This document shows positions 3,490-35,319 of a stretch of 64,000 bases of DNA, piece by piece (within the stretch, counting starts at the first letter, position 1; each line of letters opens with the position of its first letter). The notes below the pieces were generated by a model that saw only the letters and a list, made by a program, of their open reading frames with translations, ran no database searches and had not been told where the DNA came from. The stretch is from Heptranchias perlo (taxonomy: Eukaryota): assembly GCF_035084215.1 (NCBI RefSeq), contig NC_090341.1:16926001-16990000 (forward strand), given 5' to 3'. The position numbers and the translations under genes were made by a program.

Positions 3490-6296
3490 GTGTGTGTTTG
3501 GTCCATATATACAAATCAAACTACATATTCCAATGTTCTACACTGGATGGAATTAGTTTGCCAAAGCATTGTACAGTACTGTGAAGTTGAGGTGTTTTGT
3601 AAAGAGCAAAGAATTAGATAATGACTTTGAGATGATCCAATTTTGAAGCTTTCAGGCACTCCATCTTGAATTGGTGCTAGCAAGTAAATTACTGATATTT
3701 GGGAAGGCTGTTTGGAATTTAGTATTCCTTTCTGGGCTTTATTCACATTCTATTCGTTTTTAGTTCACAAATTGAATTGTTTCCATGATCAACAATTATA
3801 TGTCATTCTGTCAGTTTAAAAAAAACTAAGTATGGATGTGTGACTTAAAATATGGATTGTTTACCTGCAGTAAAGTTGTTTATTATGAGAAAGTTGATGA
3901 CATTTATCTTTTTTCAGAAATTACAAATGACACTTCTATGAAAATGTTGAACACAAAGACCATTTACGTTCACGTCTTGCTGACAACAGCTGAATCCTAA
4001 GATCTGTACAGATATTGTAGCTTTTCTGAATGCTGCATTGCAACCATGTTCTGGCGTTAACGGAATATCCATACCTGGATTTAATTTCAAAAATTTGAAA
4101 ATATTGTTTGATTAAACACTTGGCATATTACTGAACTTACTGGAGAGGTTGAAATGATAATTCATAAAATTACTGAACACATATTACACCCATTTTAGTT
4201 GATGTCTTACATATATTGGATTATTTTTCCTTTAAAACATAGGTCAGGTTAATCTAAGGTTGGATAGACAATACATTGCAGGGGGTGGGCTTGGGCTTGG
4301 AGGAGGCTCATTCTTTCACTCTTTTGAGTTCCTGATCTCCACCGTGCTATTGTGGTGAGGTGCTGGGCATAGGCCAGACACATCCGCATAGAGGGAGAGA
4401 AAGTCATTCCTGGGCTGCTGATGCATGCTTCTTCTAGCAGTATCAGAAGTGACACTGGTGGAGACCTGGAAAAGGCACCCTCTGCCCCAGGTGGTTTATG
4501 GCTCTTGCAGTTGGGGGACAAAGGACAAAATAGGGAGACTCAAACCCTCATCGAGAAGACAATATACAGTAGGGTAGATATAAATGTATACCGAGAGCAA
4601 GAAAGACCTAACTCTGAAGCAGCAAAGTTCTGACAATCTTACTCTTTTCTACTAATTCCCATTGTGTATTCTGTTCATGCCACAAAATTGAGGAGCACAA
4701 AATATTTTAATTCCCAAGGATTTACAACAACAGCTTGCATTTATATCGTGCCTGGAATGGAAAAATGTCCCAAAGATTTATTACCTATTTAGGTTTTTCC
4801 CCCGTAACAAAAAGTCACTTAATGATACTGTCTTCCTCCTCTTCCTGGCAGAAGTACCTATTTCCAACTGTTGAAAATGCAGGTTTTTTACGATGTCACC
4901 AGATAGTTTTGTGACATCTTATAAGAAAAATGTTATCCTACTGATAGTTCACTGAATTTCAATGGCCCACAAAATATCATGGACCTGTTCAAGAATGCTT
5001 ATTGGATACAACTTTTTGCTTGCAGATCAGTAGGTAGCTGTGTAAATGGAACATTAAAGAGGTTCTCTGCCCTGCACTACATATAGTTTTCAAAAAGCAA
5101 ACATTGCCAGTATGAAAATATAATTAACTTTAGACTGTAAATTGTGGTATGAGCAGCAAATGCATTGGACACTCACCCAATGTAATTGTCAAATAAGCAG
5201 TTTTGAGATCATAATGCACTTGCAATTTTGTCCCTTGTGCATTATTTGGTCAGAGTCTCTATTTAGATTCATATTGCATTAACCCCAATGTAAATCCTTT
5301 ATTCCATGAATTTTGAGACCACATCTGTAGTATTGACTTTTCACCCTGACAAGTTCAAAATGACATTGTAGGAATGAAAATGTTGCATGTAATTGTATTT
5401 CAATAATGTCCTAAGAGCCATTGGAAAAAATGTCTTGTCATCTTTAACCTTGAAACTATGCAATGCAATTCTTCACAGATGAACAAGAAAAGGGTTGGAT
5501 AACTGACAACTTCCAGCCACTAAAGTACTTTTTGGAAATCCTTGTTTGTTTTATTATACAGTTCCACATGTGCCTAGGAATTTTATTTTTGAGATCTGTA
5601 AGATCTTCCTGTTGCTTCTGTAATAATAAATGTGTTACTCTTAATAACCCATTGGGAATGCAAGTGAACTTGGGCTCACATTAGGTTCTGAAATTCAGGT
5701 TGTTTGTTTCTCAATGCATGGTGAACTAACTTTAAATAAAGGTAATGATGTGATGTGGTGATAACTGTAATGGCTTACTTTGTTTCTTTTTTTTAATACA
5801 ACCTCTTTGTCAATGCTTTTTAAAACCAGAAGCCATGTTGGTTTGTGGTACATCTGACATTGTTACTGTAAATAACATATAGCTCAAAAAATCATGACAC
5901 AACTTTTTTTTTTAAAAGTGTAACACAGGCTTTTTCTTTCAGATAATTCAGCTGAGTTCCATTTCCATCTCCACATTTGTCCAGGAGGTAGGACAAATTT
6001 TAGCACATTGATAGTGGAGTGATGCAGGCTTGAACTCCACAAACAATGGGCATCAGTGTTCACAAACATTCAGATTTTTTTTTTTGCATACCTTTTTTTG
6101 TGGGTGGCCACACGCCACATCTTGGTCAAAACAAACCCAGGAAGGCAACCTACTTCCACACTTTGGCTATTAATGCACCTGATCTAGTTTCAAGGAGTGA
6201 CACAAAAGCGGTCAAGGTTGATGGCTCTTTGGTTTTATCTCCGTGAGGCCTCTGCACATTGACTGCTGCCCACCCTGTCACAAGTTAGAATTCATT

Positions 6297-7882
6297 GGGG
6301 GAGAAATTGGTTTTGCGTCGGTTGTGCGGCACGTCGAGAACGCACACCTGAAGACCGGCCCGAGGCACATTCCAAATTGAGCCTCAGGCCTCATCTCCAT
6401 AATACCAACGAGCCTTGGATATGAATCAGGCGCCCCAATCCCTCTCACTGGTTGGGGCCTTTCCAAATTCGTCCAGCTTGGATGCCAAGCTGGTCTGCAG
6501 TTAAGTCTGGGTGGTGGGAATAGGGGCGATGTAGCTAACAAGTGATGGGCAAGCGTAGGCCGGCAGTATTGCTGTGGAGCCAGGAAAACAATCCTGCTCC
6601 TCCTTGCGCCACATTGAGGTAAGTGAAAAAGAAAAGCAGTCCCTTTAAGGACCACTAGTTAGGTCGTGGTAGACCTGGAAAAACTGCGGTGCAAGCTCCG
6701 CCCAGTTTTGTCCAATTTGGCATCGGAGTCCTGAAACAGACTAGGCTCTCATTAGCACATTCCAGGGGCCTAATGCCTGTTTTAGACGGGCAGCTTGGGC
6801 ACTCAGAAGTCGTCGGGTGCTGTACTTCCAGGGTTGATTGGACACGGGAGCTCACACCCTAAAAAAGCAGGCCAATCATCTCAGCCCCCCAGGGTCTTGC
6901 TGCAGGAGTTCCTCAGGGCAGTGTCCTCGGCCCAACCATCTTCAGCTGCTTCATCAATGACCTTCCCTCCATCATAAGGTCAGAAATGGGGATGTTCGCT
7001 GATGATTGCACAGTTTTCAGTTCCATTCGCAACCCCTCAGATAATGAAGCAGTCCAAGCCCGCATGCAGCAAGACCTGGACAACATCCAGGTTGGGCTCA
7101 TAAGTGGCAAGTAACATTCGCGCCAGATAAGTGCCAGGCAATGACCACCTCCCCTTGATATTCAACGGCATTACCGTCGCCGAATCCCCCACCATCAACA
7201 TCCTGGGGGTCACCATTGACCAGAAACTTAACTGGACCAGCCACATAAATACTGTGGCTACAATACCAGGTCAGAGGCTGGGTATTCTGCGGCGAGTGAC
7301 TCACCTCCTGACTCCCCAAAGCCTTTCCACCATCCACAAGGCACAAGTCAGGAGTGTGATGGAATACTGTCCACTTGCCTGGATGAGTGCAGCTCCATCA
7401 ACACTCAAGAAGCTCGACACCATCCAGGACAAAGCAGCCCGCTTGATTGGCACCCCATCCACCACCCTAAACATTCACTCCCTTCACCACCAGCGCACTG
7501 TGACTGCAATGTGTACCTTCCACAGGATGCACTGCAGCAACTCGCCAGGGCTTCTTCGACAGCACCTCCCAAACCCGCGACCTCGACCACCTAGAAGGAC
7601 AAGAACAGCAGGCACGTGGGAACAACACCACCTGCATGTTCCCCTCCAAGTCACACACCATCCCGACTTGGAAATATATCGCCGTTCCTTCATCGTCGCT
7701 GGGTCAAAATCCTGGAACTCCCTACCTGACTGCACTGGGAGAACCTTCACCACACGGACTGCAGCGGTTCAAGAAGGCGGCTCACCAGCACCTTCTCAAG
7801 GGCAATTAGGGATGGGCAATAAATGCTGGCCTCGCCAGCGACACCCACATCCCATGAACGAATAAAAAACAATTTCTCGCTT
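6297..7882. mobile_element. Probable non-autonomous Harbinger-type element/MITE interrupted by a LINE fragment
   Basis: Left end GGGGGAGAAATTG; degenerate inverted copy CAATTTCTCGCTT at 7870-7882. GC-richer non-coding body at 6297-6870. Termini resemble the Harbinger end at 22919. Confidence 0.45.
6871..7869 (+). mobile_element. 5'-truncated copy of the second LINE family (same family as 13275-16536)
   Basis: GVPQGSVLGP and MFADD RT motifs; near-identical to 13290-14310. Tail AAGGGCAATTAGGGATGGGCAATAAATG...GAACGAATAAAAAA. Confidence 0.93.
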
Positions 7883-7981
7883 ACCATTGAGGATCATCCT
7901 AGCTTGTGTTTGATTACTCGGTGTAATGTTGCATTGGAAGTCAAATGCAATGTTTTGTTTGCCTCTTTTTTTATATATATA

Positions 7982-8303
7982 TATTCGTTCATGGGCTGTG
8001 GCGTCCCTGGTGAGGCCGGCATTTATTGCCCTTGAGAAGGTGGTGGTGAGCCGCCTTCTTGAACCGCTGCAGTCCGTGTGGTGACAGTTCTCCCACAGTG
8101 CTGTTAGGAAGGGAGTTCCAGGATTTTGACCCAGCCACGATGAAGGAACGGCGATATATTTCCAAGTCGGGATGGTGCGTGACTTGGAGGGGAACATGCA
8201 GGTGGTGTTGTTCCCACGTGCCTGCTGCTCTTGTCCTTCTAGGTGGTAGAGGTCGCGGGTTTGGGAGGTGCTGTCGAAGAAGCCTTGGCAAGTTGCTGCA
8301 GTG
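7982..8303 (-). mobile_element. 3' fragment of the second LINE family
   Basis: ORF 7989-8291 PRLLRQHLPNPRPLPPRRT...FKKAAHHHLLKGN matches the C-terminus of the 814 aa ORF. Confidence 0.92.
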
Positions 8304-8936: not shown

Positions 8937-9067
8937 TCTAACCTCAACTAACTCACAAGCCTGTTTGTTTTTTAAAAAATCCAGTTATCATAGAATCATA
9001 GAAGTTACAACATGGAAACAGGCCCTTCGGCCCAACATGTCCATGTCGCCCAGTTTATACCACTAAG

Positions 9068-12025
9068 CTAGTCCCAATTGCCTGCACTTGGCCCATATCC
9101 CTCTATATCCATCTTACCCATGTAACTGTCCAAATGCTTTTTAAAAGACAAAATTGTACCCGCCTCTACTACTGCCTCTGGCAGCTCGTTCCAGACACTC
9201 ACCACCCTTTGAGTGAAAAAATTGCCCCTCTGGACCCTTTTGTATCTCTCCCCTCTCACCTTAAATCTATGCCCCCTCGTTATAGACTCCCCTACCTTTG
9301 GGAAAAGATTTTGACTATCGACCTTATCTATGCCCCTCATTATTTTATAGACTTCGATAAGATCACCCCTTAACCTCCTACTCTCCAGGGAAAAAAGTCC
9401 CAGTCTGTCTAACCTCTCCCTGTAAGTCAAACCATCAAGTCCCGGTAGCATACCAGTAAATCTTTTCTGCACTCTTTCTAGTTTAATAATATCCTTTCTA
9501 TAATAGGGTGACCAGAACTGTACACAGTACTCCAAGTGTGGCCTCACGAATGCCCTGTACAACTTCAACAAGACATCCCAACTCCTGCATTCAATGTTCT
9601 GACCAATGAAACCAAGCATGCCGAATGCCTTCTTCACCACCCTATCCACCTGTGACTCCACTTTCAAGGAGCTATGAATCTGTACTCCTAGATCTCTTTG
9701 TTCTATAACTCTCCCCAACGCCCTACCATTAACGGAGTAGGTCCTGGCCCGATTCGATCTACCAAAATGCATCACCTCACATTTATCTAAATTAAACTCC
9801 ATCTGCCATTCATCGGCCCACTGGCCCAATTGATCAAGATCCCGTTGCAATCCCAGATAACCTTCTTCACTGTCCACAATGCCACCAATCTTTGTGTCAT
9901 CTGCAAACTTACTAACCATGCCTCCTAAATTCTCATCCAAATCATTAATATAAATAACAAATAACAGCGGACCCAGCACCGATCCCTGAGGCACACCGCT
10001 GGACACAGGCATCCAGTTTGAAAAACAACCCTCTACAACCACCCTCTGTCTTCTGTCGTCAAGCCAATTTTGTATCCAATTGGCTACCTCACCTTGGATC
10101 CCATGAGATTTAACCTTATGTAACAACCTACCATGCGGTACCTTGTCGAATGCTTTGCTGAAGTCCATGTAGACCACGTCTACTGCACAGCCCTCATCTA
10201 TCTTCTTGGTTACCCCTTCAAAAAACTCAATCAAATTCGTGAGACATGATTTTCCTCTCACAAAACCATGCTGACTGTTCCTAATTAGTCCCTGCCTCTC
10301 CAAATGCCTGTAGATCCTGTCCCTCAGAATACCCTCTAACAACTTACCCACTACACATGTCAGGCTCACTGGTCTGTAGTTCCCAGACTTTTCCCTGCCG
10401 CCCTTCTTAAACAAAGGCACAACATTTGCTACCCTCCAATCTTCAGGCACCTCACCTGTAGCGGTGGATGATTCAAATATCTCTGCTAGGGGACCCGCAA
10501 TTTCCTCCCTAACCTCCCATAACGTCCTGGGATACATTTCATCAGGTCCCGGAGATTTATCTACCTTGATGCACGTTAAGACTTCCAGCACCTCCCTCTC
10601 TGTAATATGTACACTCCTCAAGACATCACTATTTATTTCCCCAAGTTCCCTAACACCCATGCCTTTCTCAACCGTAAATACCGATGTGAAATATTCATTC
10701 AGGATCTCACCCATTTCTTGTGGTTCCGCACATAGATGACCTTGTTGATCCTTAAGAGGCCCTACTCTCTCCCTAGTTACCCTTTTGCCCTTTATGTATT
10801 TGTAGAAGCTCTTTGGATTCACCTTTGCCTGATCTGCCAAAGCAATCTCATATCCCCTTTTTGCCCTCCTGATTTCTCTCTTAACTCTACTCCGGCAATC
10901 TCTATACTCTTCAAGGGATCCACTTGATCCCAGCTGCCTATGCATGTCATATGCCTCCTTCTTCTTTTTGACCAGTGCCTCAATCTCCCGAGTCATCCAA
11001 GGTTCCCTACTTCTACCAGCCTTGCCCTTCACTTTATAAGGAATGTGCTTACCCTGAACCCTGGTTAACACACTTTTGAAAGCCTCCCACTTACCAGACG
11101 TCCCTTTGCCTGCCAACAGACTCTCCCAATCAACTTCTGAAAGTTCCTGTCTAATACCATCAAAATTGGCCTTTCCCCAATTTAGAATTTTAACTTTTGG
11201 GCCAGACCTATCCTTCTCCATAGCTATCTTAAAACTAATGGAATTATGATCACTTGTCCCAAAGTGATCCCTCACCAACACTTCTGTCACCTGCCCTTCC
11301 TTATTTCCCAAGAGGAGGTCAAGTTTTGCCCCCTCTCTCGTCGGGCCATCCACATACTGAATGAGAAATTCCTCCTGAATACACTCAACAAATTTCTCTC
11401 CATCCAAGCCCCTAATGCTATGGCTGTCCCAGTCAATGTTGGGAAAGTTAAAGTCCCCTACTATTACCACCCTATTTTTCTTGCAGCTGTCTGTAATCTC
11501 CTTACATATTTGCTCCTCAATTTCCCGTTGACTATTTGGGGGTCTGTAGTACAATCCTATCAAAGTGATCTCTCCCTTCTTATTTTTCAGTTCTACCCAT
11601 ATAGACTCAGTGGGCGAACCCTCGGATATATCCCCTCTCACTACTGCCGTGATGTTCTCCCTAATCAAGAACGCAACTCCCCCTCCTCTCTTACCTCCTG
11701 CTCTATCTTTCCTATAGCATCTGTACCCTGGAACATTGAGCTGCCAGTCCTGCCCCTCCCTTAGCCATGTTTCAGTAACAGCTATAACATCCCAGTCCCA
11801 TGTACCCATCCATGCCCTGAGTTCATCTGCCTTGCCCATCAGACTTCTTGCATTGAAATAAATGCAGTTTAATCTAGACTTCCCTTGGTCTTTGCCCTGC
11901 TTTCTCAGACCATCTGTCCGGTCATGTTCTGTACACTCTCCCTTACTGCCTTTTGTTTCTGTCACCATTTTATTTCCCACTGACTTCCTGCATCGGTTCC
12001 CATCCCCCTGCCACATTAGTTTAAA
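9068..12025 (-). CDS. CR1 ORF2: APE endonuclease plus reverse transcriptase (true start uncertain; frame is open back to 12172)
   Basis: YFNARSL, VTETWL, GDFNFP, SDHN (endonuclease); NYRPVSLT, DFSKAFDKVPH, GVPQGSVLGP, FADD (RT). No internal stops. Confidence 0.95.
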   Translation of the reverse strand, partial: FKLMWQGDGNRCRKSVGNKMVTETKGSKGECTEHDRTDGLRKQGKDQGKSRLNCIYFNARSLMGKADELRAWMGTWDWDVIAVTETWLREGQDWQLNVPGYRCYRKDRAGGKRGGGVAFLIRENITAVVRGDISEGSPTESIWVELKNKKGEITLIGLYYRPPNSQREIEEQICKEITDSCKKNRVVIVGDFNFPNIDWDSHSIRGLDGEKFVECIQEEFLIQYVDGPTREGAKLDLLLGNKEGQVTEVLVRDHFGTSDHNSISFKIAMEKDRSGPKVKILNWGKANFDGIRQELSEVDWESLLAGKGTSGKWEAFKSVLTRVQGKHIPYKVKGKAGRSREPWMTREIEALVKKKKEAYDMHRQLGSSGSLEEYRDCRSRVKREIRRAKRGYEIALADQAKVNPKSFYKYIKGKRVTRERVGPLKDQQGHLCAEPQEMGEILNEYFTSVFTVEKGMGVRELGEINSDVLRSVHITEREVLEVLTCIKVDKSPGPDEMYPRTLWEVREEIAGPLAEIFESSTATGEVPEDWRVANVVPLFKKGGREKSGNYRPVSLTCVVGKLLEGILRDRIYRHLERQGLIRNSQHGFVRGKSCLTNLIEFFEGVTKKIDEGCAVDVVYMDFSKAFDKVPHGRLLHKVKSHGIQGEVANWIQNWLDDRRQRVVVEGCFSNWMPVSSGVPQGSVLGPLLFVIYINDLDENLGGMVSKFADDTKIGGIVDSEEGYLGLQRDLDQLGQWADEWQMEFNLDKCEVMHFGRSNRARTYSVNGRALGRVIEQRDLGVQIHSSLKVESQVDRVVKKAFGMLGFIGQNIECRSWDVLLKLYRAFVRPHLEYCVQFWSPYYRKDIIKLERVQKRFTGMLPGLDGLTYRERLDRLGLFSLESRRLRGDLIEVYKIMRGIDKVDSQNLFPKVGESITRGHRFKVRGERYKRVQRGNFFTQRVVSVWNELPEAVVEAGTILSFKKHLDSYMGKMDIEGYGPSAGNWD

Positions 12026-12963
12026 CCCTCCCCAACAGCACTGGCAAACACTCCCCCTCGGACATTGGTTCCAGTCCCGCCCAGATGCAGACCGTCCAAT
12101 TTGTACTGGTCCCACCTCCCCCAGAACCGGTTCCAATGGCCCAGGAATTTGAATCCCTCCCTCTTGCACCATCTCTCAAGCCACGTATTCATCTTAGCTA
12201 TCCTGTCATTCCTACTCTGACTTGCCCGTGGCACTGGTAGCAATCCTGAGATTACTACCTTTGAGGTCCTACTTTTTAGTTTAACTCCTAACTCCCTAAA
12301 TTCAGCTTGTAGGACCTCATCCTGTTTTTTACCTATATCGTTGGTGCCTATATGCACCACGACAACTGGCTGTTCACCCTCCCCCTCCAGAATGTCCTGC
12401 AGCCGCTCCGAGACATCCTTGACCCTTGCACCAGGGAGGCAACATACCATCCTGGAGTCTCTGTTGCGTCCGCAGAAACGCCTGTCTATTCCCCTTACAA
12501 TCGAGTCCCCTATCACTATAACTCTGCCACTCTTTTTCCTGCCCTCCTGTGCAGCAGAGCCAGCCACGGTGCCATGAACCTGGCCACTGCCACCTTCCCG
12601 TGGTGAGCCATCTCCCCCAACAGTATCCAAAACGGTATACCTGTTTTGGAGGGAGATGACCGCAGGGGACCCCTGCACTGCCTTCCTACTCTTCCTCTGT
12701 CTGTTGGTCACCCATTCACTATCTCCCTCAGTAATTTTTATCTGCGGTGTGACCAACTCACTGAACGTGCTATCCACGACTTTCTCAGCATCGCGGATGC
12801 TCCAAAGTGAGTCCATCCGCAGCTCCAGAGCCGTCAAGCGGTCAAACAATAGCTGCAGCTGGACACACTTCCCGCAGGTGAAGGAATCAGGGATACAGGA
12901 AGGAGCCCTGAATTCCCACATCTCACAAGAGGAACATGACACGGCTCTGGGATCTCCTGCCAT
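12016..12963 (-). CDS. CR1 ORF1, 315 aa: zinc finger/leucine zipper plus SGNH/GDSL esterase-like domain
   Basis: CSSC...CGKC, then heptad leucines. IGDSIVR, HIGTNDI and DGLHL blocks are typical of CR1 ORF1 esterase. Confidence 0.93.
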   Translation of the reverse strand: MAGDPRAVSCSSCEMWEFRAPSCIPDSFTCGKCVQLQLLFDRLTALELRMDSLWSIRDAEKVVDSTFSELVTPQIKITEGDSEWVTNRQRKSRKAVQGSPAVISLQNRYTVLDTVGGDGSPREGGSGQVHGTVAGSAAQEGRKKSGRVIVIGDSIVRGIDRRFCGRNRDSRMVCCLPGARVKDVSERLQDILEGEGEQPVVVVHIGTNDIGKKQDEVLQAEFRELGVKLKSRTSKVVISGLLPVPRASQSRNDRIAKMNTWLERWCKREGFKFLGHWNRFWGRWDQYKLDGLHLGGTGTNVRGGVFASAVGEGLN

Positions 12964-13070
12964 GACTTAACCCTTAAATTAGCTTAACAACAACTGCAAT
13001 GTCAAGAGGCAGACCAGCACTTCCATTGAAGAAACTGCTCTTAGTTACAGAATGCTGTTTTTGACTTGGA

Positions 13071-13107: not shown

Positions 13108-13343
13108 ATATTTCACCTGCAAGATGAAATATTAAAAACACACGAGTCAAGGATGAAGTAAGACCATTCGCCCCAATAACGCTCGCCTCAAGTATCCCAA
13201 TATTCTCATCTGGTCATCAGCTGCTTTTTGAATGTTCCCCACTTTTTATCTTTATTAACTTGCCTGGCAGATTAATTATTTTTTTTTAAATTCGTTCACG
13301 GGATGTGGGCGTCGCTGGTGAGGCCGGCATTTATTGCCCATCC

Positions 13344-16105
13344 CTAATTGCCCTCGAGAAGGTGGTGGTGAGCCGCCTTCTTGAACCGCTGCAGTCTGTG
13401 TGGTGACGGTTCTCCCACAGTGCTGTTAGGAAGGGAGTTCCAGGATTTTGACCCAGCGACAATGAAGGAACGGCGATATATTTCCAAGTCGGGATGGTGT
13501 ATGACTTGGAGGGGAACGTGCAGGTGCTGTTGTTCCCATGCGCCTGCTGCCCTTGTCCTTCTAGGTGGTAGAGGTCGCGGGTTTGGGAGGTGCTGTCGAA
13601 GAAGCCTTGGCGAGTTGCTGCAGTGCATCCTGTGGATGGTGCACACTGCAGCCACAGTGTGCCGGTGGTGAAGGGAGTGAATGTTTAGGGTGGTGGATGG
13701 GGTGCCAATCAAGCAGGCTGCTTTATCTTGGATGGTGTCGAGCTTCTTGAGTGTTGTTGGAGCTGCACTCATCCAGGCAAGTGGACAGTATTCCATCACA
13801 CTCCTGACTTGTGCCTTGTAGATGGTGGAAAGGCTTTGGGGAGTCAGGAGGTGAGTCACTCGCCGCAGAATACCCAGCCTCTGACCTGGTATTGTAGCCA
13901 CAGTATTTATGTGGCTGGTCCAGTTAAGTTTCTGGTCAATGGTGACCCCCAGGATGTTGATGGTGGGGGATTCGGCGATGGTAATGCCGTTGAATGTCAA
14001 GGGGAGGTGGTTAGACTCTCTCTTGTTGGAGATGGTCATTGCCTGGCACTTATCTGGCGCGAATGTTACTTGCCACTTATGAGCCCAAGCCTGGATGTTG
14101 TCCAGGTCTTGCTGCATGCGGGCTCGGACTGCTTCATTATCTGAGGGGTTGCGAATGGAACTGAACACTGTGCAGTCATCAGCGAACATCCCCATTTCTG
14201 ACCTTATGGTGGAGGGAAGGTCATTGATGAAGCAGCTGAAGATGGTTGGGCCAAGGACACTGCCCTGAGGAACTCCTGCAGCAATGCCCTGGGGCTGAGA
14301 TGATTGGCCTCCAACAACCACTACCATCTTCCTTTGTGCCAGGTATGACTCCAGCCACTGGAGAGTTTTCCCCCTGATTCCCATTGACTTCAATTTTACT
14401 AGGGCTCCTTGATGCCACACTCGGTCAAATGCTGCCTTGATGTCAAGGGCAGTCACTCTCACCTCACCTCTGGAATTCAGCTCTTTTGTCCATGTTTGGA
14501 CCAAGGCTGTAATGAGGTCTGGAGCCGAGTGGTCCTGGCGGAACCCAAACTGAGCATCGGTGAGCAGGTTATTGGTGAGTAAGTGCCGCTTGATAGCACT
14601 GTCGACGACACCTTCCATCACTTTGCTGATGATTGAGAATAGACTGATGGGGCGGTAATTGGCCGGATTGGATTTGTCCTTTTTGTGGACAGGACATACC
14701 TGGGCAATTTTCCACATTGTCGGGTAGATGCCAGTGTTGTAGCTGCACTGGAACAGCTTGGCTTGAGGCGCAGCTAGTTCTGGAGCACAAGTCTTCAGCA
14801 CTACAGCTGGGATGTTGTCGGGGCCCATAGCCTTTGCTGTATCCGGTGCACTCAGCCGTTTCTTGATATCACGCGGAGTGAATCGAATTGGCCGAAGACT
14901 GGCTTCTGTGATGGTGGGGATATCGGGAGGAGGCCGAGATGGATCATCCACTCGGCACTTCTGGCTGAAGATGGTTGCAAACGCTTCAGCCTTGTCTTTT
15001 GCACTCACGTGCTGGACTCCGCCATCATTGAGAATGGGGATGTTTGCAGAGCCTCCTCCTCCCGTTAGTTGTTTAATTGTCCACCACCATTCACGACTGG
15101 ATGTGGCAGGACTGCAGAGCTTTGATCTGATCCGTTGGTTGTGGAATCGCTTAGCTCTGTCTATAGCATGTTGCTTCCGCTGTTTAACATGCATGTAGTC
15201 CTGTGTTGTAGCTTCACCAGGTTGGCACCTCATTTTTAGGTACGCCTGGTGCTGCTCCTGGCATGCTCTTCTGCACTCCTCATTGAACCAGGGTTGATCC
15301 CCTGGCTTGTTGGTAATGGTAGAGTGAGGAATATGCCAGGCCATGAGGTTACAGATTGTGCTGGAATACAATTCTGCTGCTGCTGATGGCCCACAGCGCC
15401 TCATGGATGCCCAGTTTTGAGCTGCTGGATCCATTCTGAATCTATCCCATTTAGCATGGTGGTAGTGCCACACAACACGTTGGATGGTGTCCTCAGTGCG
15501 AAGACGGGACTTGATCTCCACGAGGACTGTGCGGTGGTCACTCCTACCAATACTGCCATGGACAGATGCATTTGCGACAGGTAGATTGGTGAGGACGAGG
15601 TCAAGTAAGTTTTTCCCTCGTGTTGGTTCGCTCACCACCTGCCGCAGGCCCACTCTGGCAGCTATGTCCTTCAGGACTCGGGCAGCTCGGTCAGTAGTGG
15701 TGCTACCAAGCCACTCTTGGTGATGGACATTGAAGTCCCCCACCCAGAGTACATTCTGTGCCCTTGCTACCCTCAGTGCTTCCTCCAAGCGGTGCTCAAC
15801 ATGGAGGAGGACTGATTCATCAGCTGAGGGAGGACGGTAGGTGGTAATCAGCAGGAGGTTTCCTTGCCCATGTTTGACCTGATGCCATGAGATTTCATGG
15901 GGTCCAGAGTCAATGTTGAGGACTCCCAGGGCACTCCCTCCTGACTGTATATCACTGTACCGCCACCTCTGGGGATGGAAGAGTCTGGGACGTTGGCTGA
16001 AAGATATGATTCTGTAAGTTTGGCTATGTCAGGCTGTTACTTGACTGGTCTGTGGGACAGCTCGCCCAATTTTGGCACAAGTCCCCAGATGTTAGTAAGG
16101 AGGAC
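13344..16105 (-). pseudogene. APE endonuclease-reverse transcriptase ORF; the 814 aa portion 13344-15788 is open, the N-terminus has a stop, a probable deletion and a frameshift
   Basis: TNIWGL, QPDI..TES, TYRPPS, GDFNVHH, SDH; NYRPISL, QFGFR, DIKAAFDRVWH, GVPQGSVLGP, FADD. Confidence 0.9.
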
Positions 16106-16456
16106 CTTGCAGGGTCGACTGGGCTTTGTGTTTTTTTGCCGTTGTTGTGTCCGGTTTTATTCTTATTATGACTTTTTGTAGCGAGATTTTACAACTGAGT
16201 GGCTTGCTAGGCCATTTCAGAGGGCAATTAAGAATCAACCACATTGCTGTGGGTCTGGAGTCACATATAGGCCAGACCGGGTAAGGACGGCAGGTTTCCT
16301 TCCCTAAAGGACATTAGTGAACCAGATGGGTTTTTACGACAATCCGGTAGTTTCATGGCCATCATTACTGATACTAGTATTTTAATTCCAGATTTTTTAT
16401 TTAATTAATTGAATTTAATTAATTAATTGAATTTAAATTCGCCAGCTGCCGTGGCA

Positions 16457-16530
16457 GGATTTGAACTCATGACTCTGGATTTTAGTCCAGGCCTCTGGAT
16501 TTCTAGCCCAGTAACATAACCACTATGCTA
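16457..16530 (-). promoter_or_regulatory. RNA polymerase III type-2 internal promoter (A box and B box)
   Basis: A box TAGCATAGTGG (16530-16520) matches TRGCNNARYGG exactly. B box GAGTTCAAATCC (16468-16457) lies about 50 nt downstream. Confidence 0.85.
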
Positions 16531-17816
16531 CTGTACATTCCAAACATTCATCAATTTTGAGTAAAACCATTCATCCTAATATCAGTTTTAAATTTATTAT
16601 TCACTAATTTAATTTGTCCTCTGGTCCAACTTTTCTATCTTACTTTGAAATGATATTATTATAGGTTTAACTCACTTGTCCTATTTCATATTTTCTACAC
16701 CTCAATGAACCAGACTGCAGAACTTGAACTTCTCTCATGTTTTCTTGTAACCTCATCATCCTTACCCACCCACTGTGAAAATCATACCCCTAAGTCCACT
16801 TTGCACACGTTCCAGTGCCAGGTCGGTCACCAAGGCTGAAAAGAACTGTAAGTGTGGATTGTAAGGCCATAGTAAACTTTACTGTTTTGTTTATATATTC
16901 CCATTGCTTCATCATATTGATCAAAAATGAAAGTATCGATTGTCCCATCGATCCCAGGTTTGTTTCAATGGGGGTTAAATTCAATAACTCCTGAATCCAG
17001 GCACGGGCATCACGGTCCGCGATTGACCTGCACTCGGTGCTTCAGATGCAGGTTGCACGTGAGATTTGTGCTGCCTGGTCATTACCATGATTTGTACCTG
17101 CAGCCAGCGCTACCCGCACTGTTGAGAGGCTGCACTCACAAGCAGGAGCCCTGAAATGGGGCATCGCCCGCACTAGTTAAAGGCAGCCTGCACCTCTTAA
17201 AGGGGAGGTGCACAGTTAATGAGAGCAGCGCTAGATGGCAGGCAGAATTACTGGACTGGCAAGAGAGCACGCACCTGGGGCATCATTTTAGCACCCGCCA
17301 GCGGGTGCCTTCCTGGCAGGGGGGCCCCGAAGATCGGGAAATCCCGGCGCGGGACCGGAGCCCGCCTCGAACCCGCGCACTTCCGGGTTCCCCACTGACG
17401 CACTGGCGTGCGCGCGCAGCCCCCGCTAGTGGGAATCACGCAGGCAATTAAAGCCAGCGGGATGCCACTTGAAGCTATTTATTTTGCTTGTTCAGGTCAT
17501 TAACTGACCTGATTAAGGGATTATGTGAGGAGGGTGGGATTTTCGAGCAAACTGGGACTGTTTCCCACACTGGGGGAAACACTTTCAATTCAAATGGACC
17601 TGTTGCAGCTGTCAGCCTGTGGCAGCTGCAAAGGTCCATTTGACAGGTGGGGGGGGGAGACCCTCACCCATTGCAGGAGGCCACTCTGTCACTTGGGACA
17701 AAGTTTGACCTCCACCACCCTCCTCCTGACAATCAAAGTCACCAACTTGCACACTTACCCCGGGGTCCAGAGACATGTACCTACCTTGCGGACCCCCTCA
17801 GACGTACATCTTCCAG

Positions 17817-24499: not shown

Positions 24500-24684
24500 C
24501 TAATTTTGTGCCTTTGTATCATAAATGAAACAAATAGACTCTGGACAAAATATCCTGTAACACCATTATTATTAGTAATATTAATAGAATTTCTCACCAC
24601 TAGCATTCAGAACATATCCCCAAATCAAATGGGGTAAGGATATAACAATTACTACAAGTTTGATATATCCAATCAGTGTGTTAC

Positions 24685-25474
24685 TTTTTTTTATTTGTTC
24701 ATGGGATGTGGGCGTCACTGGCGAGGCCGGCATTTATTGCCCATCCCTAATTGCCTTTGAGAAGGTGGTGGTGAGCCGCCTTCTTGAACCGCTGCAGTCC
24801 ATGAGGTGAAGGTTCTCCCACAGTGCCGTTAGGAAGGGAGTTCCAGGATTTTGACCCAGCGACGATGAAAGAACGGCAATATATTTCCAAGTCAGGATGG
24901 TGTCTGACTTGGAGGGGAACGTGCAGGTGGTGTTGTTCCCATGTGCCTGCTGCCCTTGTCCTTCTAGGTGGTAGAGGTTGTGGGTTTGGGAGGTGCTGTC
25001 GAAGAAGCCTTGACGAGTTGCTGCAGTGCATCCTGTGGCTGGTATACACTGCAGCTACGATGCGCTGGTGTTGAAGGGAGTGAATGTTTAGGGTGGTGGA
25101 TGGGGTGCCAATCAAATGGGCTGCTTTGTCCTGGATGGTGTCGAGCTTCTTGTGTTGTTGGAACTGCACTCATCCAGGCAAGTGGACAGTATTCCATCAC
25201 ACTCCTGACTGTGCCTTGTAGATGGTGAAAAGGCTTTGGGGAGTCAGGAGGTGAGTCACTCGCCGCAGAATACGCAGCCTCTGATCTGCTCTTGTAGCCT
25301 CAGTATTTATGTGGCTGGTCCAGTTAAGTTTCTGGTCAATGGTGACCCCTCCAGGATGTTGATGGTGGGGATTCAGTGATGGTAATGCCGTTGAATGTCA
25401 AGGGGAGGTGGCTAGACTGTCTCTTGTTGGAGATGGTCATTGCCTCGCACTTGAGTGGCGCGAATGTTACTTGC
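24685..25474 (-). mobile_element. 3' fragment of the second LINE family
   Basis: KKLDTIQDKAA...FKKAAHHHLLKGN and the same 3' tail. Confidence 0.92.
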
Positions 25475-31474: not shown

Positions 31475-33207
31475 ACTGTCTCCGGATGATCAACTTATGT
31501 ATTCATTCAATGAAGACCAACTTGTCAAGTAACTAACTCAAGAATGCGTTTGACCTAGGGTCTTTGTTGAAAATGAATATTATGGAAAATACTAATTATC
31601 CTTTTATGTGTGCATGATATTGAATGTCACATCAATAATTAAAAATTGTTTATTTAATATTTGTTCAAATCTTTTTGACAAGATCCTGCTTCATTGTCGA
31701 TAATAAAAGTCTTTCATATTCATGCACTTCCTGCTATGTGACACTTCCTGCAACATTTTCCTATTGTGCCTTTATCCTCACACTTTTTCTAGCACATTAT
31801 ATCCATCATGGCTGTCTCACAATTTGCTGTCATGCTTTACTAACATGATTAAACTTATCCTATTTATTTTACGTACCTCTGATTGAGTCTTCCATGATAG
31901 CCTCTAAGGTAGGTGGTGCTGTTATTCACTTACCGGTGAGGCCTCCAAGATAGATGGCATTATGTTCTACTCAGGAAGCCCTGATCGGGCCCTCCACGCC
32001 ACTGTTGCCTTGCCAAACATTGAACCCCCTTCCCTGGGTAAATATTCCATCCCCTCCATCCCCACTCCCTCTTACTGATTCTCAACACCTGTACCCCACA
32101 CTCATGATATACCGATATCCTTTTCCTACTCCTTCCAGATGCATGTCATCTCTCCTCAGTGTTCCCAAACGCATCAACTGCCCCTCCCCATGCATTCTAA
32201 TCCTACAACCACCTCCTGGTTCTTCTTCACCCTTGCAACCTCCCAGCAATACTTTACACACCATACCAAAATCTAGGACCACTCTCCCACACTACTGCTA
32301 CAGCCTATTTCCTACCAGCCAACAACCTGCAGCATCTTCCCAACATTGTCGTCTTTATCCTGGGCTTTAGAAAAAGGGAAGGGATAAAATTAATTGCATA
32401 GTTAACCTATCTATTAACAGTAATCAAGGCCACTGATTTATAGTTCCCATGCAAATATATAATTAATTCATGGAATTCAAAACCAAAAATATCACAACCT
32501 CTCAAAAGACTCAAAGCACAATTTAATTTATCAATCACTGTAAATCAGTCGCCCTGAAAATATTGCATTACATACCGGTTTCCTCTGATCTGTTATTGTG
32601 TATGGAAATAAGAAGCCTTTTGTTATCTAAGAATATGAAATTCTAGTTCATGCAGTTATTTTTTCACAATATTGTTTAATTCATTTATATGAAAAGAGCA
32701 TTATTTGAAAAAGGATGCACATATTTTGTGTAATGTCCAAGAAGATTCTCAAAACATGATTTGTGACCCTTATTTCTTCATTTAATTTTTGGGATAAATA
32801 AAGCCCCATGGTTTAATTATTTAAATGTTTGACTATTGACTTTTACCAGTGCGATAAGGAATATGTTTATTGTGAACCTTATGGTGGGTTTTGCAATACC
32901 AATAAAAATTTTGGCACGCGGTTAAAATTTCAACAAATGTACATTTTCATATCGTACAATTATGTTTTTTTATACCTTGGGCTTGATTGGACCATACTGA
33001 CCTTTATTGTGTTAAAAAAATTCCAATTTTGACAAAGAAGGACTTTTAACCAGTGACTACATCCATGCAATGGCACATTGCAAAAATTATCTGAAAAGCT
33101 GTACTAAGTGATGTGATGAGCTATTGTTTTTTGTTTGCTACCCAAGTCATCAGGGACACATAAAAGGTGAGGGAAAATTTGTGGGATAATTATCTTGGAG
33201 CACCTTT

Positions 33208-34058
33208 TCTTTAATTTATTCTTGGGATATGGGCGTCGATGGCAAGGCCAGGATTTAATGCCCATACCTTGTTGCCCATGAGGAGGTAGTGATGACCAGC
33301 CTTCTTGAACTGCTGCAGTCCGTGTGGTGAAGGTAATCCTTCAGTGCTGTTAGGTAGGGAGTTCCAAGATTTTGACCTAGTGACGATGAAGGAACGGCGA
33401 TATATGTCCAAGTCAGGATAGGGTGTGACTTGGAGGGGAACTTGGAGGTGATGGGTGTTCTCATGCGCTTGCTGCCCTTGTCCTTCTAGGTGGTAGAGAT
33501 CACGGGTTTGGGAGGTGCCATCAAAGAAGCCTGGGCGAGTTGCTGCAGTGCATCCTGTGGATGGTACACACTGCAGCCACGCTGCGTGGTGGTGGTGGGA
33601 GTTGATGTTTAAGGGCTGCTGATGATGTTGAGCTTCTTGAGTTTTGTTGCAGCTGCGCCCATCCAGGCAAATGGAGAGTATTCCATCACACTCCTTGACT
33701 TATGCTTCATAGCTGGTGGAGGGACTTTGGGGAGTCAGGAGGTGAGCCACTCAATGCAGAATACCCAGGGTCTGTCCTGCTTTAGTAGCCATGGCATTTA
33801 TGAAGCTGGTCCAGTTGGGTTTCTGTTCAGTGGTGACCCTCCAGGATGTTGATGGTGTGGGATTCGGCGATGGTAATGCCATTGAATGTCAAGGGGAGGT
33901 GGTTAGACTCTCTTGTTGGAGATGGTCATTGCCTGGCACTTGTCTGGTGAGAATGTTACTTGCCACTTATCAGCCCAAGCCTGGATGTTGTCCAGGTCTT
34001 GCTGCATGCGGGCACGGACTGCTTCATTATCTGAGGAATTGCAAATGGAACTAAACAC
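33208..34058 (-). mobile_element. Older 3' fragment of the second LINE family
   Basis: SDNEAVRARMQQDLDNIQAWADKWQVTF and the family tail; more diverged than the other copies. Confidence 0.9.
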
Positions 34059-35319
34059 TTTTTTACACTTCCCAATACCTGTATAGGCAAATGTCTGGGA
34101 ATAGTGGTGGGATTTTGAAAGATAAAGGAACAAATAATAAAAAGGAGAGACGGGAGAAGTATCTTTCTGTTCATGACCATGAACTTTTTGACTTGACAGC
34201 AGCATGTTAAAAGAACAGTTGAAGATTCTGATGTTCATCGAAATGAAATACCCAAGGTGATGCTTGGTTAATTGGTGCTACGCTTAATATTGGTTACCAA
34301 ACATAAATCATCACATGCTTTTCAAAGAATTGCAATGTTTTCCATCACGCAGTATCTTTCCAACACTAATTAGAGTAGTAAAAATAGCCTTGTACTGCTA
34401 TTGTGAAAGCCTGTAGATAGTTGGGTCATTTTGTGACAACCAAAGTTCGCAGTAGGTGGGAGGGCATAGAGCTACTTGAACCATACTGCCTTCCTTCCAT
34501 TGGACTTTGACTCAACATCACAGATTAATGTAGATGCAGATGGTATTTCCATTCTTAGGATTTTAGAAATTATATAGTTTACTGCATCTGAGTGGCAATT
34601 CCTTACGAGAAGTTAACAAAATTAGAAATTGCAAGATATCCAACAAGTTGCATTTATATCCTTTGATTAGGAATATAAGGACATGCAGGTTTATGTGACT
34701 AAGTCACTTCTTTCATGTTCGCTGGGCACTTTATCTGCTCATGATCGAGCCACAATTAACTGTTCCTGAATTATTTGGAGTTTATATTGAGTTTAACCCT
34801 GTGTTTGATTATACCCTATAGGTAAAAAAGCTGCTATATTTTCTCACTAATATGTTTTTCAAGCAATTCTGTAAGCTTTCAAATCACATTAAACTGCTGA
34901 ATGCACAATGTTTTATTCATCATTGCTGAAAGTAGCTGAAGATGTTTGACTGGGAATAATATTTTGGCTAGAAATGCACAGGTAAGACAACATGGAATAA
35001 ATTCTCAGTAGGTTTACTTCCATTGGATGCAATTGAGTTTTTGTAAATATAGATAAACCCTCTTAAAACAAAGAAGATAATATGATTAGCATTGCATCTT
35101 AAAATAAAAAGAATAAACAAGATTAGTCACAAAACTAAATAGGCAATTTGTTTTATTGTAGTTGCCGACTAAACAATACAAATAAACCAATAATCAGTGA
35201 TTAATACAGTAACTAGTTATCTTAAATCATAAAGAAATTTAATATTTTATTTGTTACTTTGCATCAAAATGGATAGATTCTGTTAACTGATGCAAGCAAA
35301 ATGCTATTAGGTAAATGTC

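Follow-up and report, generated by a model that had tools for sequence, protein, structure and literature searches.

Retroposons are usually split into two kinds: long interspersed elements (LINEs), which encode protein and are transcribed by RNA polymerase II (Pol II), and short interspersed elements (SINEs), non-coding repeats that RNA polymerase III (Pol III) transcribes and that are said, in the accessible part of PMC5786205, to be unable to encode protein. Among LINEs, the CR1-Zenon group is probably closest to the element described here. Forms with a single open reading frame (ORF) were noted in Lepidoptera (PMC6740152, available sections). For bivalves, the excerpts at hand give an average Zenon length of 5,204 bp, with longer forms perhaps also in the group. 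We analysed a stretch of 64,000 nucleotides (nt) from the shark Heptranchias perlo (the window; positions count from its first letter) that contains a LINE with a tRNA-derived head on its minus strand (13277..16536). This is a decayed full-length copy of a family of ~3,335 nt that appears to cross the LINE–SINE split thousands of times in a vertebrate genome. We regard it as virtually certain that this is a real, abundant, coding, tRNA-headed LINE family, and its sequence points to Pol III as the polymerase that reads it.

An original prediction, made from the window alone, had read on the minus strand an A box, a B box, an AT-rich spacer, a SINE-like body, an endonuclease, a reverse transcriptase (RT), a 3′ untranslated region (UTR) and an A-tail, and we found this order in place. 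The head (16445..16536), delimited by alignment of the 5′ boundary and by the Rfam tRNA model, carries an A box (16520..16530) at +9 from the family start, an anticodon-arm-like segment (16475..16511) that is a ~21-nt tandem duplication in the younger form, and a B box (16457..16468) in what the model aligns as the T loop. An AT-rich spacer without TTTT on its sense strand (16362..16439) leads into the body (16192..16361), which also occurs in short derivatives and ends in a hairpin with a 7-nt loop. Directly 5′ of the long frame lie an in-frame AUG-GCC-UAG mini-frame and a second in-frame stop, UAA (16189..16215). As had been claimed, no ORF1 stands between head and endonuclease, so the copy lacks the two-ORF layout of CR1. 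The endonuclease motif was said to follow the body directly. The motif is present (VLLTNIWG, from 16105), but a basic (Arg/Lys/His/Thr) N-terminal extension without Met intervenes (16109..16188), which has ~36 codons in intact copies and lacks 34 nt here. The APE-type endonuclease (15525..16105) is followed by the RT (Pfam RVT_1, 13938..14687, with FADD at 14186-14175), a stop codon, a ~55-nt 3′ UTR and a short A-tail (13277..13346; family tails have mostly 7-15 A). The full endonuclease–RT (EN-RT) frame read here is intact in some other copies, where it spans 973 codons, but is broken in the window copy: the endonuclease contains an in-frame stop (16039-16037) and two deletions, leaving an 894-codon frame (16028-13344) that matches Pfam Exo_endo_phos_2 and RVT_1. 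Relative to the intact copy L188, the window copy shows deletions of 34 nt (~16148), 42 nt (~15969), 1 nt (~15931) and 3 nt (~14678) and a 3-nt insertion. It is a broken member of the family.

A copy of this kind could result from a single template switch that made a chimera, or from a SINE inserting ahead of a truncated LINE. Either would be undermined by recurrence of the junction, and its confinement to this locus had been named as what would overturn the prediction. We searched the 3.25-Gb genome with the head-to-endonuclease stretch and scored 40 of 5,860 candidates; the junction was found at 39 other loci, and 32 of these 39, when fetched, were colinear over the full length, with 89-95% identity and differing flanks. 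A search with the head only gave 29 other loci with DNA: the sequence runs on to the endonuclease in 26 and skips to the 3′ tail in 3. When 35 loci from this search were extended, 28 proved full length. The full-length set comprises 61 colinear copies with unrelated flanks (60 after removal of one duplicate locus), each 0.75-5.2% off the commonest letter per column (median 1.6%). Their 5′ end is sharp: flank letters are mixed, and then 47-60 of the 60 copies are alike in each column.

Because searches with stretches of the element favour good copies, we added an unselected sample. Exact 21-22-nt motifs occur genome-wide 8,218 times for the endonuclease start and 5,556 times for the A box (reversed controls, 0), and the sample consisted of the first 100 endonuclease-start matches on one contig, C1. 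An exact A box lies 330-480 nt upstream of 35 of these starts. From the remaining 65 we fetched the first 40: 14 have a complete or near-complete head, 26 are cut inside the same leader, and none of the 40 has another leader or an ORF1. Twenty of 37 unpaired A-box matches were also fetched; 13 enter the ORF, 5 are head-plus-tail derivatives and 2 are interrupted. Scaling from exact matches on one contig end, we estimate ~4,500-4,700 headed copies in the genome. Full-length copies with an ORF1 or a different 5′ UTR, the second finding named as fatal, did not appear among the sampled copies. The identical junction at every readable locus, and in subfamilies with linked variants, refutes both origins and leaves them a negligible probability.

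The family also encodes protein. Copies L183 and L188 have an intact 973-codon frame with endonuclease and RT. Singleton variants, counted outside CpG and CTA/TAG contexts, were 303 synonymous to 845 other, as expected from decay after insertion, whereas variants shared by at least five copies were 28 synonymous to 17 other and included no stops (P=1e-6 versus singletons). The part of the endonuclease that lies upstream of the first Met (codons 37-249) behaved alike, with 16:9 for shared variants versus 71:193 for singletons (P=3e-4), and so it did within the 54 double-stop copies, in which UAA, the second stop, precedes the frame (14:7 versus 67:171, P=8e-4); the N-terminal extension held too few variants for the test (P=0.25). 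Judged by these ratios, the inherited variants are under purifying selection on the protein. Given intact frames and purifying selection, we are highly confident that the family is autonomous, which bears out the prediction of an autonomous protein-coding element.

We then considered the head. The family starts with GGGTACGG, which the window copy matches from the third base on. The anticodon-loop position reads AGT (Thr-like) in most copies, by our own reading of the Rfam alignment. A copy with a single arm, L293, scores 28.2 bits with the Rfam tRNA model (E 0.0077), just below the gathering score of 29, and the alignment spans the D, anticodon and T arms, with the B box in the T loop. The window head scores only 18.6 bits (E 0.62) and ARAGORN found no tRNA in it, because the anticodon-arm-like segment is duplicated. 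Most copies carry this duplication and score lower than the single-arm form: among 28 C1 heads scored for arm spacing, 21 were long, 6 short and single-arm, and 1 intermediate. The A box is 93-100% and the B box 92-100% alike per column in the 60 copies. This is similar to the rest of the element, so box conservation among copies is by itself no evidence of function. A tRNA-derived 5′ head with A and B boxes is a SINE2-type feature. Comparison of the body with the printed BivaMeta/Meta and UCON3 rows of two supplements, by eye only, gave no clear match.

The 5′ end falls exactly at tRNA position +1, and this would also suit a head that serves as an RNA-processing signal, at whose 5′ side a tRNA nuclease (e.g. 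RNase P) cuts to release the element out of a host transcript. Self-cleaving ribozymes do this for other LINEs, and some LINE clades have a ribozyme head (PMC5786205, in the part available). The acceptor and T stems are degenerate, however, and processing leaves the ORF-wide avoidance of T runs described below unexplained, so that we give this reading very little credence. A search with Rfam and a home-made descriptor, the latter without a positive control, found no ribozyme of the hepatitis delta virus (HDV) type in the element or the relatives tried. By eye, L100:450-520 and the Zenon 5′ ends in the accessible supplement of PMC6740152 resemble such a ribozyme; Rfam and the descriptor gave no confirmation.

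Transcription of the whole element by Pol III requires a sense strand free of terminators. Over 3,246 nt of sense strand there is no TTTT versus 4.45 expected, and there are 7 TTT versus 21.8 expected; in five control stretches, taken from four further LINEs of the window, T runs are at or above expectation. Internal TTTT is absent from 48 of the 60 full-length copies. The shortest working Pol III terminators are TTTT and TVTTT, TTT being poor (PMC8466645, available part); together they number 0-1 versus 7.1-7.3 expected (P<=0.008), and four gapped terminator variants are absent too. The element thus shows a further SINE2-type feature, the lack of an internal Pol III terminator. At synonymous T/C sites, T is chosen in 142 of 336 cases (42%) where it stands alone, in 45 of 143 (31%) where it makes TT, and in 5 of 43 (12%) where it makes at least three T (P=5e-5). 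A/G sites, at which the T would be antisense, show no comparable drop, so the effect is strand-specific. A young CR1 family used as control showed no T-run avoidance (164/264 versus 60/89, P=0.45) and has 11-13 TTTT and 4-5 longer runs per copy at 30 of 30 loci. The T-run ratio is 0.28 in the element versus 0.53-1.25 in 59 related LINE frames, namely those of at least 1,800 nt among 80 related loci. With dinucleotides preserved, the TTT deficit is still significant (P about 0.004). This avoidance supports, indirectly, the earlier proposal that a tRNA-type (Pol III) promoter drives a coding retroposon.

T runs inside the 3′ tail (19 of 114 ends) were considered as captured terminators and rejected. 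The tails hold no excess of them over the sequence further downstream (26 versus 21 of 114, P=0.51), and elongation of T as tails age has been described (PMC8466645, available part), so we did not use them as evidence. In 19 of 114 tails a T-run is followed by an A-run, or the reverse, with a near-constant total of 10-12 nt; the pattern suggests A-to-T conversion after insertion, by which such copies gain a 3′ terminator of their own.

The insertion marks are those of a LINE. The 3′ end is fixed, 5′ truncation occurs and short duplications flank the copies, as in target-primed reverse transcription; duplications of at least 4 nt were seen at 18 of 57 copies versus 4.8 expected, and none was detected in 30 of the 57. 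A pattern that joins the end of the body to the 3′ tail had 41 exact matches with many junctions, one recurring ~12 times, and further breakpoints came from the head-only search, the unselected C1 sample and the sequence runs. Many breakpoints that share one leader point to repeated internal deletion from the long form as the source of the short derivatives; an earlier donation of the head by an ancestral SINE is possible. Only the derivatives are short and non-coding in the manner of SINE2, the full element being 3.3 kb long with a selected 973-codon frame. A similar body-plus-3′-tail repeat may occur in salmonid genomes. Five of 40 unselected copies (L285, L308, L309, L311, L322) are 5′-truncated at one spot, element nt 214-216 (window ~16320). 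By eye the spot lies at the 3′ border of a small hairpin and could mark an RT pause, a processing site or a second start. L072, L080/L187 and L304 have the element's first bases repeated in short tandem arrays ahead of the 5′ end, as would follow if template jumps recurred when reverse transcription ends.

We wondered where translation begins. The long frame has no AUG before a first Met near residue ~250, which is itself polymorphic. L188 has eight upstream AUGs, none of which opens the long frame, and the nearest is that of AUG-GCC-UAG. Among 119 distinct junction sequences, the first stop is TAG in 69 and the second is TAA in 92. In an older form TAC replaces the second stop (18 of 119), and 13 of the 119 keep the AUG with both stops lost, so that sources of the older form may have been AUG-initiated. 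Since no AUG opens the frame and yet the endonuclease before the first Met is under selection, initiation is likely AUG-independent, and the long frame is likely translated from a non-AUG start. Our preferred route is re-initiation after the AUG-GCC-UAG mini-frame, by analogy with L1 ORF2 and SART1. Alternatives are a near-cognate ACG at codon 4, or a tRNA-mimic hairpin; the latter started as a lead found by eye, in which the 7-nt loop at the body end would pair with an in-frame GCU codon like the tRNA mimics of dicistrovirus internal ribosome entry sites, and we think it improbable.

The same junctions bear on a split of labour, whereby Pol III would make the template RNA as if from a giant SINE and the protein would come in trans from Pol II transcripts, read-through or rare AUG-opened copies. 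Such a split would account for a frame that is not AUG-opened in most copies; the 13 junctions with an AUG and no stops could provide the rare coding copies, and the short derivatives show that trans-mobilisation happens. On the contrary, the inherited variants of the double-stop copies are under purifying selection, endonuclease included, which is expected if the sources encode their own protein. The changes at the first stop are diverse (CAG 21, GAG 20, AAG 4) and lie in a hypermutable context, as expected if they arose after insertion. We therefore hold a split of labour to be quite unlikely, and continue with a Pol III transcript translated in cis.

A cycle of the following kind would fit these data. 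TFIIIC would bind the internal A and B boxes and Pol III would start at the tRNA-like +1; with the promoter internal and the start at +1, the promoter would pass to every full-length daughter. As TTTT is absent, Pol III could transcribe all 3.3 kb, pass the A-tail and stop at the first T run of the flank, and a source copy that gained a terminator would lose its 3′ end and leave no daughters. The RNA, presumably uncapped, would be translated in cis by re-initiation or non-AUG initiation just after the mini-frame. The EN-RT protein would bind the 3′ tail and, as LINE families are known to do, carry out target-primed reverse transcription, giving short duplications and frequent 5′ truncation. 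Internal deletions of the kind observed would join head and body to the 3′ tail, producing ready-made tRNA-SINEs. That this single-ORF, tRNA-headed LINE is transcribed at full length by Pol III and translated in cis we consider probable. A more far-reaching version, to which we give slightly better than even chances, is a self-sufficient coding SINE: a 3.3-kb Pol III RNA whose codon use bears the mark of Pol III termination, whose translation in cis needs neither cap nor AUG, and which spawns tRNA-SINEs by deletion alone.

Several points weigh against a Pol III transcript that is translated in cis. As a tRNA, the head is degenerate, and one of its arms is duplicated. The sense strand is T-poor (20%), TTTT is also absent in 3 of 79 related segments (1.0-1.9 kb), and its absence taken alone has P=0.08-0.09 when dinucleotides are preserved, 0.074 under a Markov model and 0.044 under codon shuffling. 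TT is mildly avoided as well (31% versus 42%), and a general avoidance of UpU may account for part of the signal. The junctions with an AUG and no stops belong on this side too, the body folds no better than shuffles (z 0.29), and recruitment of ribosomes by an uncapped 3.3-kb RNA is presumed only. No element transcript was seen: runs X6 and X18 consist of contigs of guessed RNA status, which cover the element without giving strand, start or level.

Some of these points favour Pol II. The head would then be the captured 5′ part of a SINE that acts as, or within, a Pol II promoter, or the element would depend on host read-through, and its lack of T runs would stem from composition and UpU avoidance. 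TT is under-used, TTTT absence is not significant against dinucleotide shuffles, AATAAA stands at the tail start in most copies, and LINEs are described as Pol II units in the accessible text of PMC5786205. On the other hand, the strand-specific deficit grows as runs get longer and is missing from the CR1 control and the 59 relatives; the 5′ end is fixed at tRNA +1; and the eight upstream AUGs of L188, none opening the long frame, fit cap-dependent scanning badly. We thus judge Pol II transcription to be unlikely, though less so than a split of labour, and retain Pol III as the preferred polymerase.

To place the element among LINEs, we built an RT-region tree (145 rows, quick method, midpoint root, no Repbase or named references). 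The element falls on the 32-row side of a branch with support 99, together with L100/L105, P0001-P0013 (less P0010-P0011 as set) and the moth rows P0048/P0015. The branch excludes the window's CR1 elements; the element's own side is unresolved, with long branches. P0001-P0013 include several 34-42% relatives. By eye only, P0048 agrees with the Zenon-1_Hmel start printed in PMC6740152 (Fig. S3), and the C-termini are alike. The single ORF and the A-tail are as in lepidopteran Zenon, and the element likely belongs to the CR1-Zenon group. The ESM Atlas returned only generic EN-RT clusters.

The head had been taken to stand in place of ORF1. This part of the prediction found no support: lepidopteran Zenon, the closest relatives with a name, have a single ORF already, so the head probably took the place of a 5′ UTR rather than of ORF1. 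The lineage was probably single-ORF before it gained the head; this order of events is presumed, and the longer bivalve Zenon are noted beside it. Repeats of CR1-Zenon type have been mentioned in the whale shark, with no structure given, and in bivalves Zenon is the mobiliser of tRNA-SINEs, as far as the sources at hand go; capture of the head from the 5′ part of a partner SINE by a template switch is therefore plausible. Nine close metagenome relatives had no upstream frame longer than 114 codons within 119-949 nt and did not resemble the head. Neither the head nor the tail of the shark element matched the 80 related loci (best E 0.089), and no box pair at tRNA spacing lay near the ORF in 79 related segments. 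A tRNA upstream of the metagenome LINE pieces L171/L172 (ARAGORN, 1 of 60 loci) was dismissed as a chance neighbour with its own T run and another repeat following.

Among named protein fragments, those most similar to the element's protein are pieces of Heptranchias perlo gene models (93-95% identical), followed by Mobula (81%) and Heterodontus (71%). Sequence runs from three other organisms contain 36-73% of the sampled element words, and the four runs examined cover 30 of 30 bins of the element; one contig of organism B bridges the body and the N-terminal extension, and 835 contigs of organism C break off at the element's same 5′ boundary. The body motif had 0 matches in prokaryote and viral contigs. 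In run X8, many organism-C contigs diverge just after the body (at L188:621), which would drop the second stop and keep the frame (cell agreement 0.48). ORF pieces inside shark and ray gene models for an aldo-keto reductase and an Ig-domain protein (P0010, P0064, P0068, P0073) are probably annotation errors, exonisation being possible.

Within the window, the four further 3′ fragments that had been predicted were found, all of them 5′-truncated copies at 83-93% identity: 6869..7873 (plus strand, 93%), and, on the minus strand, 7980..8303 (91%), 24681..25474 (93%) and 33205..34059 (83%, with a deletion). The claim that the element sits in an old CR1 found weak backing: the 5′ flank weakly matches the C-terminus of CR1 ORF2 (E 0.041, two-sequence search), but the 3′ flank had no significant match. 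A CR1 reading frame that rejoins across the insertion is plausible from the flanks. A young two-ORF CR1 family (9000-12970, minus strand) directly adjoins the element; its loci (L255-L284) are mostly 99% identical, with a GDSL-esterase ORF1 and, in L259, an intact 1,132-codon ORF2. At L069 and L311, elsewhere in the genome, a second copy, interrupted or truncated, has a head or head-plus-body piece immediately upstream of it, and a 3′ fragment has entered the L069 head close to the B box. Three diverged fragments and one endonuclease fragment served to look for a separate, abundant older subfamily, which was rejected: the best matches were 72-79% identical, and among 20 loci fetched from part of these searches 17 belonged to the young family and 3 were old decayed pieces. 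In the 60 copies, mutation rates at the T in CTA and the A in TAG resemble those at CpG (~104 and 50 per 1,000 versus ~10 in most contexts). The young CR1 shows the same effect at its 30 loci (11.3 and 11.2 versus a mean of 3.0). The effect concerns both strands and includes many transversions; it may stem from a mutational process that acts genome-wide or from an artefact of the assembly.

Should Pol III transcription and cap-independent translation both hold, the family would come near to a new kind of retroposon and provide a natural kilobase-long Pol III messenger. It would open the questions of whether Pol III RNA serves as mRNA in animals and how an RNA without cap or AUG-opened frame attracts ribosomes. 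It also offers a simpler route to the birth of SINEs, head first and deletion second. The synonymous T-run test is a cheap screen of repeat libraries for further cases, e.g. RTE-1_DAn. In the literature searched, which lacked most subscription papers and Repbase Reports, we found neither a tRNA-headed coding LINE nor the transcription of a LINE by Pol III described, and three sequence motifs of the family had 0 matches in paper texts; the family may already be catalogued in Repbase or Dfam. LINE protein made outside the conventional cap-AUG route has precedents in R2, L1 ORF2 and SART1, whose RNAs are Pol I co-transcripts or Pol II products without an internal tRNA promoter.

Both halves of the element, the LINE and the tRNA head, are known separately, and RTE-1_DAn is a possible precedent in print. 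CR1-Zenon (Zenon-1_Hmel, Zenon_BM; PMC6740152, in the sections available) shares with the element a single EN-RT frame, a basic N-terminal extension, an A-tail and a similar C-terminus, at a protein identity of only about 32-35%. Both also give rise to short derivatives by internal deletion, the partner of Zenon being Persaeus (PMC6740152). Unlike the element, Zenon has an AUG and a 5′ UTR that is not tRNA-derived, and Persaeus, as the same partial source states, has no tRNA homology or Pol III promoter. RTE-1_DAn and related elements are, like the element, autonomous LINEs, said to contain tRNA-like sequence, which matches many SINE2 families; they belong to a different clade, and the available text of PMC5786205 treats these matches as noise and does not state their position or function. 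RTE-1_DAn may be an independent case of the same architecture. The shark SINEs SacSINE1, CmiSINE and HE1 share with the element tRNA heads with A and B boxes in cartilaginous fishes; the descriptions available (PMC5499810, PMC3747384) set them apart, as non-coding repeats that have only the 3′ tail in common with a separate LINE (L2-2_CM, HER1). CoeSINE4, SINE2_Gav, WALLSI2 and hagfish SINE2-9/10 (PMC5786205, PMC7245038, accessible parts) combine a tRNA head, a LINE leader and a LINE tail, which is the layout of the element's derivatives. For such bipartite tRNA-SINEs, the accounts available propose that the head was added to an already deleted LINE, whereas here the head stands on a coding element and deletion comes second.

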